Virus record (IMG/VR): IMGVR_UViG_2778261693_000003
Length of the DNA: 17,858 nucleotides
Strand: one strand, 5' to 3'
Source of the DNA: a virus
Lineage: Duplodnaviria; Heunggongvirae; Uroviricota; Caudoviricetes
A program made the position numbers and the translations under genes. Shown here piece after piece: positions 15,385 through 17,731 of this stretch (position 1 is the first letter of the stretch; the number at the start of each line of letters is the position of its first letter). The notes under the pieces were generated by a model, which worked only from the letters and a program-made list of their open reading frames with translations, was not told where the DNA came from and did no database searches.

Positions 15385-15451
15385 TGAAACAGGTGAGTTG
15401 AGTTCAAACTGTAGTACAATTCTCTCCAGTTTGAACAGGAAAGAATATGCT

Positions 15452-15784
15452 ATGAACCCTTATATTTATCTTGGTGGTGCAATACTTGCAGAGGTCATTG
15501 GTACAACCTTAATGAAGTTTTCAGAAGGTTTTACACGGTTATGGCCATCTGTTGGTACAATTATTTGTTATTGTGCATCATTCTGGTTATTAGCTCAGAC
15601 GCTGGCTTATATTCCTACAGGGATTGCTTATGCTATCTGGTCAGGAGTCGGTATTGTCCTGATTAGCTTACTGTCATGGGGATTTTTCGGCCAACGGCTG
15701 GACCTGCCAGCCATTATAGGCATGATGTTGATTTGTGCCGGTGTGTTGATTATTAATTTATTGTCACGAAGCACACCACATTAA
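15452..15784 (+). CDS. emrE: Small multidrug resistance (SMR) efflux transporter, 110 aa
   Basis: Translation MNPYIYLGGAILAEVIGTTLMKFSEGFTRLWPSVGTIICYCASFWLLAQTLAYIPTGIAYAIWSGVGIVLISLLSWGFFGQRLDLPAIIGMMLICAGVLIINLLSRSTPH is a four-helix SMR protein with the conserved Glu in TM1; matches my memory of EmrE. Confidence 0.92.
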   Translation: MNPYIYLGGAILAEVIGTTLMKFSEGFTRLWPSVGTIICYCASFWLLAQTLAYIPTGIAYAIWSGVGIVLISLLSWGFFGQRLDLPAIIGMMLICAGVLIINLLSRSTPH

Positions 15785-15814
15785 AATAATTTGTTTCTAA
15801 ACGACTAAAATATG

Positions 15815-15846
15815 GAGGCTCTTATATTTATATGAGCCTCGTTTTA
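15815..15846 (+). terminator. Rho-independent terminator after emrE
   Basis: Stem GAGGCTC (15815-15821), 12-nt loop, stem GAGCCTC (15834-15840), then GTTTTAT. Confidence 0.65.
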
Positions 15847-16038
15847 TGCTTCTTGTTAATGTCTTTATTTTTTATGTATTCTTTTATGCTTTCAAGATTA
15901 TGGCGTAAGAAAATTGCAATACGATTATTGTTGTATATTCAAGATAATGTGACCTTAATTGTCTTTTTAAATAAAAAATAAACAAAAATTATATCCCACC
16001 ACTAAGGTTTATAAAAGCATACGTTAGCAGGTGTCACC

Positions 16039-17565
16039 ATGAAAAAAGCCATAGCATATATGCGATTTTCATCACCAGGTCAGATGTCTGGCGACTCATT
16101 AAACCGACAGAGAAGACTTATTGCTGAATGGTTAAAGGTAAATAGTGATTATTATCTTGATACCATAACATATGAAGATTTAGGATTAAGTGCATTCAAA
16201 GGAAAGCATGCACAATCAGGAGCTTTTTCGGAATTTTTAGATGCTATAGAGCATGGTTATATATTGCCAGGAACTACATTGTTAGTTGAAAGTCTGGACA
16301 GACTTTCAAGAGAAAAAGTCGGTGAAGCGATTGAACGTCTGAAATTGATTTTGAATCACGGTATTGATGTTATAACTCTTTGCGACAATACAGTCTATAA
16401 TATTGACTCTTTGAATGAGCCATATTCATTAATAAAAGCCATACTTATAGCACAAAGGGCAAATGAAGAAAGCGAGATAAAGTCAAGTCGGGTTAAATTA
16501 TCATGGAAGAAAAAACGGCAGGATGCACTGGAATCAGGTACGATTATGACGGCGTCTTGTCCGAGATGGCTCTCCTTAGATGACAAAAGAACGGCTTTTG
16601 TTCCAGACCCCGACAGGGTGAAAACTATTGAGCTAATTTTTAAACTCAGGATGGAAAGGCGCTCATTGAATGCAATAGCCAAGTATTTAAATGATCATGC
16701 TGTAAAGAATTTCTCAGGAAAAGAAAGTGCATGGGGACCTTCTGTAATTGAAAAATTATTAGCGAATAAAGCTCTGATAGGTATATGCGTACCTTCATAT
16801 CGTGCAAGAGGGAAAGGGATAAGTGAAATCGCTGGCTATTATCCCAGAGTCATATCAGATGATTTGTTTTACGCTGTACAGGAAATTCGGTTGGCACCTT
16901 TTGGTATTAGCAATAGTAGCAAGAATCCTATGCTAATAAATCTACTTCGAACAGTTATGAAGTGTGAGGCTTGTGGTAATACCATGATTGTTCATGCGGT
17001 ATCTGGAAGTTTGCATGGCTATTATGTTTGTCCGATGAGAAGATTACATCGATGTGACAGGCCATCAATAAAAAGAGATTTGGTTGATTATAATATCATT
17101 AATGAATTGCTTTTTAATTGTAGCAAAATTCAACCAGTTGAAAACAAGAAAGATGCTAATGAAACTTTAGAGTTAAAAATTATTGAGCTTCAGATGAAAA
17201 TTAATAATTTAATCGTTGCATTGTCTGTCGCGCCTGAAGTTACCGCTATAGCAGAGAAAATAAGACTATTAGATAAGGAATTACGAAGGGCTTCGGTATC
17301 ATTGAAAACTTTGAAGAGTAAAGGTGTAAATTCATTCAGTGATTTTTATGCTATTGACTTAACCAGTAAAAATGGACGAGAGTTATGCCGTACACTTGCC
17401 TATAAAACATTCGAAAAAATCATAATTAATACGGATAATAAAACCTGTGATATCTATTTTATGAATGGCATTGTTTTTAAACACTATCCTTTAATGAAAG
17501 TAATATCCGCCCAGCAGGCGATAAGTGCTCTCAAATATATGGTTGATGGTGAGATTTATTTCTAA
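16039..17565 (+). CDS. ybcK: Large serine recombinase (resolvase/invertase-type N-terminal catalytic domain, recombinase domain, Cys-rich zinc ribbon), 508 aa
   Basis: N-terminus MKKAIAYMRFSSPGQ carries the catalytic-serine context of serine recombinases. Cys cluster CEACGN...CPMRRLHRCD. AT-rich gene adjacent to emrE, as in DLP12. Confidence 0.85.
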   Translation: MKKAIAYMRFSSPGQMSGDSLNRQRRLIAEWLKVNSDYYLDTITYEDLGLSAFKGKHAQSGAFSEFLDAIEHGYILPGTTLLVESLDRLSREKVGEAIERLKLILNHGIDVITLCDNTVYNIDSLNEPYSLIKAILIAQRANEESEIKSSRVKLSWKKKRQDALESGTIMTASCPRWLSLDDKRTAFVPDPDRVKTIELIFKLRMERRSLNAIAKYLNDHAVKNFSGKESAWGPSVIEKLLANKALIGICVPSYRARGKGISEIAGYYPRVISDDLFYAVQEIRLAPFGISNSSKNPMLINLLRTVMKCEACGNTMIVHAVSGSLHGYYVCPMRRLHRCDRPSIKRDLVDYNIINELLFNCSKIQPVENKKDANETLELKIIELQMKINNLIVALSVAPEVTAIAEKIRLLDKELRRASVSLKTLKSKGVNSFSDFYAIDLTSKNGRELCRTLAYKTFEKIIINTDNKTCDIYFMNGIVFKHYPLMKVISAQQAISALKYMVDGEIYF

Positions 17566-17731
17566 ATAATGATCTCGGATTTTAAGTTATGCTATGGTGA
17601 TAAAGTGCAAGACAGAATTAATTATCTTTGACGAAACTTAATGGGTAATTACTTTGTTTGCTCCCACAAGCGAGTTTTGTACGGCTGTATTGGGGTAGTA
17701 AATGAGCTATACAATCTTAATCATTTGTTAG

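Follow-up and report, generated by a model that had tools for sequence, protein, structure and literature searches.

Here we report an analysis of the right-hand end of a 17,858-nucleotide stretch of Caudoviricetes DNA (IMG/VR record IMGVR_UViG_2778261693_000003; the whole stretch is called the window below), where emrE, the gene of an efflux transporter, ylcJ, a small open reading frame (ORF), and ybcK, the gene of a large serine recombinase (LSR), follow one another on the + strand. Read from its left end, the window holds sfm fimbrial genes, tRNA-Arg(tct) (5604-5680) and, adjoining this tRNA gene, the intD gene of a lambdoid prophage that continues with exo/bet/gam, the repressor gene, O, P and ren. 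E. coli GPEC1189 (L001) is 99.1-99.5% collinear with the window, and its RefSeq annotation there runs intD...ren, emrE, ylcJ, ybcK, ybcL, ybcM. The window prophage is a fuller, DLP12-like version of the K-12 prophage DLP12, and the segment in question is the known, annotated emrE-ylcJ-ybcK stretch of E. coli. With all three genes already annotated, our refinement is that only ylcJ-ybcK is a foreign cassette, located at the emrE stop codon (Table 1).

The emrE-ylcJ-ybcK block in lambdoid prophages

An earlier note on this DNA, made from the sequence alone, treated emrE and the recombinase gene as one cargo, much more AT-rich than the phage replication genes. The compositional part of that claim holds, with a GC content of 0.411 for emrE and 0.356 for ybcK against 0.509 for O-P-ren; the spacer between the two genes falls to 0.272, and the cassette as delimited below (15793-17731) has 0.345. 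As a travelling unit the pair is contradicted by comparative genomics. Among 5426 complete E. coli genomes, the interval was matched in 3699 and at least 80% of it was covered in only 1399; about 2260 genomes match emrE alone, at ~92% identity, and roughly a quarter of the genomes carry ybcK. A synthetic emrE|ybcL junction that leaves out ybcK is matched in one piece in 2627 genomes. E. coli Nissle (L002 7989-11846) carries between fliE and yedK a phage-free island annotated with emrE, ybcL, ybcM and a porin gene named ompC, which is collinear with the prophage version except that ylcJ-ybcK and the whole nin-Q block are missing. Its homology to the window begins at 15376, ~7 bp ahead of the ren stop, stops at 15791 and resumes 2083 bp further on in an uninterrupted reference. 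Between phage types, emrE is 97-100% identical as far as its stop codon and is contiguous with ren and P. Because emrE adjoins ybcL without ybcK in so many genomes and identity breaks at the emrE stop, emrE is not the obligate partner of YbcK; judged from these alignments, the two genes are separable and do not form one cargo unit, and emrE is the insertion target rather than a partner. emrE itself is a phage-borne efflux moron that is shared with a phage-free chromosomal island.

We therefore regard it as highly improbable that emrE and ybcK are the cargo and the recombinase of one integrative element, or that YbcK works at a nearby site as an invertase or resolvase. That both genes are AT-rich and lie adjacent in at least 1399 genomes would fit a single element, yet this version is already contradicted by the genomes in which emrE is followed by ybcL, by the phage-type empty sites in which it is followed by an esterase gene, and by the break at the emrE stop, to the left of which contiguity with ren and P persists at a GC content of 0.41 as against 0.345 in the cassette. 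The invertase version is taken up below with the enzyme.

The block as a whole lies between ren and the nin genes in argU prophages and in the O157:H7 prophage at icd, and a prophage adjacent to ybhC has it in the same slot with emrE replaced by IS1. All three genes are annotated in the isolated phage 4A7, and tblastn finds YbcK at 97.6-100% identity in phages 1W, Turner and PhiR34_1. The right-hand neighbours of ybcK vary, being ybcL-ybcM, the esterase gene, ybcN or a P22AR fragment. Every inspected prophage with a visible end has its own tyrosine integrase (attachment (att) sites argU, icd and ybhC), and because the host prophages carry these integrases YbcK is not the prophage integrase, in agreement with the earlier note, which had held that the recombinase is not needed for integration.

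EmrE is a full-length member of its family (NCBIfam NF042984, 239.7 bits against a cutoff of 226, residues 1-110 of 110; Pfam SMR PF00893, 2.1e-35). Between the ren stop and the emrE ribosome-binding site lies an inverted repeat (I5, 15402-15436) with 13-nt arms GTTCAAACTGTAG...CTCCAGTTTGAAC, which folds at -13.4 kcal/mol (z = -1.9) and falls within the stretch common to the window and the phage-free island. A search of 15200-17858 against Rfam matched no family.

The ylcJ-ybcK cassette and its recombinase

The ends of the cassette are clearest in copies of the 4A7 type, where imperfect direct repeats of 38-60 bp, 2073 bp apart, stand on either side of the segment that separates emrE from the esterase terminator; they share an identical 15-bp core, CATTAAAAATAATTT, overlapping the emrE stop codon. 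The left end reads ...CACGAAGCACACCA-CATTAAAAATAATTT-ATTTTTAAACGACTAAAATATGG and then enters a hairpin; the right end reads ...GGTCACGCCCCC-ATTAAAAATAATTT-CTTTTGAATCGAGTGAAATAGG and then enters a strong terminator. The right-hand repeat holds a degenerate emrE 3' end, and the spacing is 2073 bp in all 4A7-type copies with both junctions readable. In the window the left core, CATTAAAATAATTT, occurs once, and the right end with its attR-like site lies past the insertion sequence (IS), outside the window. At that end the DLP12-type reference has only a degenerate ATTACTAATAAT, ~11 nt before island-type homology resumes, a junction less clean than that of the 4A7 type; an intact cassette measures 2073-2083 bp. 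Across phage types, identity runs at 97-100% from P through emrE and collapses only at 15780-15870 and after ~17520, which are the cassette ends.

Natural empty sites match these boundaries. A synthetic query of 500 bp, consisting of left flank, core and right flank, was matched in one piece in two of the complete genomes (L019 and L020), unrelated strains from France and Japan in which ren-emrE is followed directly by the esterase gene. The 4A7-type empty junction reads CACCACATTAAAAATAATTTCTTTTGAATCG; an exact 31-nt empty junction is present in four IMG/VR contigs and two metagenome contigs, and the attR 30-mer in 14 IMG/VR contigs. No fresh DLP12-type empty site was found at 97% identity or above, the best match being 92.8% and most island-type sites ~87%. 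Given repeat-bounded ends and exact empty sites, the recombinase looks like part of a separate integrative element, as the earlier note had suggested, although emrE, which that note included, falls outside it. Of the attachment-like inverted repeats for which it proposed to search the flanks, no significant pair brackets a segment, and the sites that did emerge are the direct repeats with a 15-bp core in the 4A7 type. By these comparisons ylcJ-ybcK is a discrete, repeat-bounded, AT-rich cassette of ~2.1 kb, inserted exactly at the emrE stop codon. Since the flanking direct repeats are diverged and the empty site equals left arm, core and right arm, entry as a circle by a single crossover of the Campbell type is indicated.

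Table 1. Features of the emrE-ylcJ-ybcK region, in window coordinates.
Feature	Position	Strand	Basis
Left edge of emrE accessory module	15376..15451	+	BLAST of Nissle island against window
emrE, small multidrug resistance (SMR) efflux transporter, 110 aa	15452..15784	+	NCBIfam EmrE; Pfam PF00893
attL-like core CATTAAAATAATTT, overlapping emrE stop	15779..15792	+	Alignments of attL, attR and empty-site junctions
AT-rich ylcJ-ybcK cassette, uninterrupted part	15793..17731	+	2083-bp indel against Nissle; GC
Hairpin (stem GAGGCUC/GAGCCUC) and GUUUUAUGCUU, candidate intrinsic terminator for emrE	15815..15846	+	Folding
ylcJ, hydrophobic small protein, 49 aa	15832..15981	+	Pfam PF23688, 5.6e-35; RefSeq
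Published sigma-70 (RpoD) ybcK promoter, GTGACC-17-TAAAAA	15947..15975	+	Table in PMC3946193
ybcK, LSR, 508 aa, intact	16039..17565	+	Pfam; residues; AlphaFold (AF2); Foldseek
Non-coding right arm of cassette, proximal part	17566..17731	+	Alignment A1; identity profile
ISKpn26 left end (IS5 family)	17732..17858	+	100% match to features annotated ISKpn26 family transposase

The recombinase gene is intact and under purifying selection: DLP12-type and 4A7-type ybcK differ by 39 synonymous and 12 non-synonymous changes, a ratio of non-synonymous to synonymous rates (dN/dS) of 0.077. Pfam assigns to YbcK the domains Resolvase (PF00239, 5.5e-19), Recombinase (PF07508, 2.3e-14) and Zn_ribbon_recom (PF13408, 7.9e-8), and among 24 homologues of 41-61% identity the residues R9, S11, Q15, E84, D87, R88, R91 and E92 are invariant, as are C309, C312, C331 and C339 of the zinc ribbon. 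The AF2 model (predicted local distance difference test, pLDDT, 79.8) has antiparallel helices at 367-397 and 401-427, which make up a coiled coil, and a small C-terminal beta domain. Foldseek aligns this model over its full length to serine integrase complexes in the PDB, with 9dxd at E = 1.6e-18 over 552 columns and PhiC31 and Bxb1 also among the matches. Phmmer and profile searches of the PDB with YbcK returned no recombinase, only spurious RING-finger matches to the zinc ribbon; the NCBIfam XisF match is weak (46.9 bits against a cutoff of 375), and EmrE, YlcJ and YbcK matched no PADLOC-DB model at E <= 0.01. By domains, residues and fold, YbcK is thus a complete LSR that has every catalytic and zinc-ribbon residue. 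In the literature YbcK figures as a predicted recombinase only, and our search there found no paper on its activity or its att sites.

A role as a serine DNA invertase of the Hin/Gin/Pin type was rejected, since those proteins have ~190 aa and a C-terminal helix-turn-helix whereas the 508-aa YbcK contains a recombinase domain and a zinc ribbon. Between 15300 and 17858, all inverted repeats are short or imperfect; they enclose nothing coherent, and no significant pair brackets a segment. The suggestion in the earlier note of an invertase or resolvase that uses a nearby site thus finds no support on either count.

The spacer between emrE and ybcK carries the left end of the cassette. The hairpin there (15815-15840, followed by GUUUUAU) folds at -14 kcal/mol (z = -3.8), none of 200 shuffles being equally stable, and the 4A7 allele retains its stem via G-U changes; a simple terminator scan reported nothing on the + strand and missed it. 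The terminator that had been ascribed to the emrE-recombinase pair as its own is therefore real as a hairpin, but it belongs to the left end of the cassette, which plausibly provides emrE with its intrinsic terminator. The start codon of ylcJ sits in the 3' arm of the same hairpin. Listed among small ORFs (PMC6001520), ylcJ encodes a product that is 67-84% identical (tblastn) between alleles whose YbcK is ~98-99% identical, and no homologue outside E. coli was seen in the fetched loci; given that it diverges far faster than ybcK, the description of a leader region may suit ylcJ better than that of a conserved protein.

The short direct repeats to which the earlier note had drawn attention are present, at 15891-15902 and 15938-15949 rather than from 15889 and 15929, together with TTTTATGCTT at 15842 and 15882, and all of them lie inside ylcJ, which it had missed. 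When the 254-bp spacer (27% GC) is shuffled with dinucleotides preserved, 30% of the shuffles equal or exceed its number of near-identical 12-mer pairs and 17% its number of exact 10-mer pairs, and the 4A7-type allele has not conserved the first 12-mer. Being at chance level and not conserved, the repeats were rejected as att or operator sites. Published data place in the spacer an RpoD promoter and H-NS binding (PMC3946193) and in the ybcK leader a Rho-dependent terminator (PMC4150792), and Hfq/polyphosphate (polyP) has been published to bind ybcK.

To the right of ybcK, ~80 bp of the arm are partly conserved across E. coli cassette types. The IS sits in this arm and parts ybcK from the attR-like end; it begins at 17732 after TTAG (17728-17731), 166 bp past the ybcK stop, where collinearity with L001 stops. 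The earlier note had the IS and its distance right but named it IS5. K-12 carries ~11 IS5 copies. In K-12 MG1655 the junction query 17450-17858 matches at just two places, including ybcK itself, so the IS is not IS5 proper, for which many more places would be expected; its 127-bp end is 100% identical to ISKpn26, a member of the IS5 family. ISKpn26 is often plasmid-borne (1237 of 5540 matching places are on plasmids). None of the 5426 complete genomes has an IS at this junction, and the insertion is therefore strain-specific.

Three further features of the window prophage lie away from the cassette. A BamE-like lipoprotein gene (11128-11508, - strand) stands between the kil-side genes and the repressor, and a YdaT-toxin-domain protein is encoded in the cII position (12832-13371, + strand), both by RefSeq annotation of the collinear record and Pfam. 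Near the xis side, 301 bp (7341-7641) replace 39 bp of the otherwise 99%-identical L001.

Origin and mobility of the cassette

At 40% identity or above the YbcK family is confined to Enterobacterales, and relatives 83% identical to each other occupy different slots across genera. A 59%-identical homologue in Atlantibacter (L012 9530-10432) is the final prophage gene, preceded by Mu-like genes for baseplate and tail fibre, and is convergent with a full tmRNA gene (ssrA) ~540 bp away, the usual position of a prophage integrase. The Erwinia homologue adjoins lepA, the Yersinia homologue lies between two prophages, others occupy the nin region upstream of a DUF1367 gene, and on Pantoea and Duffyella plasmids a homologue stands alone among cargo genes. 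Diverged direct repeats of a neighbouring gene flank LSR cassettes of 2.1-3.0 kb in Kluyvera, where repeats of 27 bp lie 2111 bp apart; in L018, an unassigned read-archive contig, where the first 60 DUF1367 codons are duplicated (97% at the amino acid level, 86% at the nucleotide level) around LSR-KGG-DinI; and in Pantoea alvi, where ~360 bp, the 3' half of a gene like lambda replication gene P, is duplicated around the LSR.

Other features of these loci were noted in passing. In Pantoea and an Enterobacterales metagenome-assembled genome (L028 and L029, 4972-10151), the LSR homologue has one copy of a 14-16-nt motif, TCCGCTTTGTGCCAGA, on its upstream side and three on its downstream side. The related lambdoid prophage in L018 encodes a SIR2_2-domain protein in its nin region (3755-5695), and L019 has a HipA-family kinase and a DUF3037 protein next to the repressor (3516-5089), each a candidate for defence or toxin functions.

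Our best explanation, which we hold at a probability of about one half, is that ylcJ-ybcK is either a minimal LSR-borne integrative cassette or what is left, int and att, of a larger element, and that YbcK itself integrated it. The ren-nin slot would then contain two independent accessory modules, the emrE moron and a cassette of ~2.1 kb made up of hairpin, ylcJ, ybcK and a tail of ~300 bp. The cassette would have entered as circular DNA by a Campbell-type single crossover at the 15-bp site over the emrE stop codon, leaving the imperfect direct repeats as attL-like and attR-like ends, with YbcK as its own LSR serving as integrase and excisionase rather than as an invertase. We infer both this catalysis and the timing of ybcK expression: ybcK points the same way as the early rightward operon of the phage and would be read through in N-antiterminated lytic transcription. 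In the lysogen, H-NS, Rho and Hfq/polyP silence it. Besides being silenced, the cassette is by now probably immobile, as the window copy in particular would be because its attR-like end is degenerate and has been severed from ybcK by ISKpn26.

Several observations weigh against a cassette moved by its own recombinase. The reconstructed attP junction of the circle, CCCCCATTAAAAATAATTTATTTTTAAAC, was found in none of the 5426 genomes, IMG/VR or the JGI metagenomes, a weak negative given how seldom such joints are captured in assemblies. The 8 empty sites have a single emrE 3' haplotype in common, set apart from every filled copy by 3-5 nt in 300; on the right flank the sequences are intermingled. 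This single haplotype, together with the uniform 2073-bp spacing of readable filled copies, indicates one old gain or one old loss without ongoing movement, and the empty site could equally have arisen by deletion across the 15-bp repeat. In the inspected E. coli records and phages the cassette always lies beside emrE or an IS that replaces it, and all 2627 island-type emrE-ybcL sites are unoccupied. Over ~60 bp the attP-like arms are similar to the attB-like ones, an unusual situation among phage LSRs, and dyad symmetry is weak, with scores of 14/24 for attB (top 6% of background) and 11/24 for attP (the background mean). Among ~25 homologue loci searched for flanking direct repeats, only 4 lineages were positive and most had no repeats. 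Finally, that an unmoving copy is under strong purifying selection suggests the maintenance of another function.

Because this selection is strong, an accessory function is the main rival. YbcK would then be a domesticated moron protein that benefits phage or host, with the flanking repeats as a historical footprint; it might resolve or rearrange DNA at another site, or aid stress tolerance. We consider this rather unlikely, although it is favoured by a dN/dS of 0.077 without sign of recent mobility, the carriage of ybcK by viable isolated phages, and the lone homologues on Pantoea and Duffyella plasmids, where multimer resolution is conceivable. In addition, overexpression of ybcK raised and its deletion lowered sabinene tolerance (PMC7181518), although this phenotype has no mechanism attached and comes from overexpression. 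Neither inverted repeats nor res-like arrays occur nearby and no substrate site was found; PADLOC defence models gave no match, and the gene is silenced in the lysogen, all of which sits poorly with domestication.

A different explanation is that the repeats and the empty sites arose by homologous or illegitimate recombination between mosaic lambdoid phages, leaving YbcK as the stranded integrase of an unrelated element. Lambdoid genomes are indeed mosaic, the sequence to the right of ybcK differs by phage type, occupancy is fully linked to one emrE haplotype, and relatives have long repeats, of 180-360 bp at 81-86% identity, which greatly exceed what an LSR requires. However, diverged repeats on both sides imply a circle and a single crossover, whereas replacement by double crossover leaves none; the identical core, at only 15 bp, is short for homologous recombination; and the same architecture surrounds this LSR family in four lineages. 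We therefore think this origin distinctly doubtful.

Should the cassette be self-integrating, it may stand for a wider class. YbcK-type LSRs could belong to minimal cassettes of 2-3 kb that parasitise the accessory slots of temperate phages and of plasmids in Enterobacterales, inserting at gene ends, carrying a diverged copy of the target segment, being expressed from phage early transcripts on induction and spreading between co-replicating phage genomes. We offer this generalisation as speculative and, on the whole, unlikely.

On a practical level, the uncharacterised K-12 gene ybcK is now placed in a repeat-bounded cassette with a 15-bp junction, natural empty sites and concrete candidate att sites, from which a simple recombination assay can be designed. 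An active YbcK would be an Enterobacterial LSR whose att sites are short, AT-rich and similar to one another, and would provide an example of a mobile cassette hitchhiking within temperate phages. The idea that emrE, a clinically noted efflux gene, is mobilised by YbcK is corrected: emrE travels independently, as a phage moron and in a chromosomal island.

Comparison with known systems

Like the morons of the lambdoid nin region, the block is flanked by conserved phage genes, varies in its presence between close relatives, and has an atypical composition with a promoter and a terminator of its own. Unlike those morons, which are normally fitness genes, its payload is a site-specific recombinase with att-like repeats. 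SpoIVCA of the skin element and XisF of the fdxN element, both developmentally excised, share the domain architecture of YbcK (PMC6637259) and are likewise LSRs inside an element that interrupts a locus; here, in contrast, emrE is undisrupted, its stop codon is preserved, and there is no evidence of programmed excision.

To the phage serine integrases (PhiC31, Bxb1, A118/LI and SPbeta SprA) YbcK shows a full-length fold match, with Foldseek E values of 1e-13 to 1e-18, and it has the same catalytic Ser/Arg motif, zinc ribbon and coiled coil, although it is too dissimilar in sequence to characterised LSRs for phmmer or profile searches of the PDB to match it to one. Some of its relatives also stand at prophage edges beside ssrA or host genes, as such integrases do. 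In E. coli, however, ybcK lies in the middle of a phage genome that integrates via a tyrosine integrase, the attP-like and attB-like sequences of the cassette are similar rather than distinct, and there is no candidate directionality factor.

TnpX of Tn4451, TndX of Tn5397 and CcrAB of SCCmec offer a further comparison. Their elements differ from the cassette, which has only ~2.1 kb, a 49-codon ORF as its sole cargo and a home inside temperate phages of Enterobacterales, and for which no circular form, second target or recent mobility was detected. Nevertheless, these enzymes have the same three-domain LSR architecture as YbcK and move small or medium-sized elements as a circle without a known directionality factor; the ends, joint and target of their elements resemble one another, as do those of the cassette; and SCCmec, which inserts at the 3' end of orfX with short direct repeats, resembles the ylcJ-ybcK cassette at the end of emrE.

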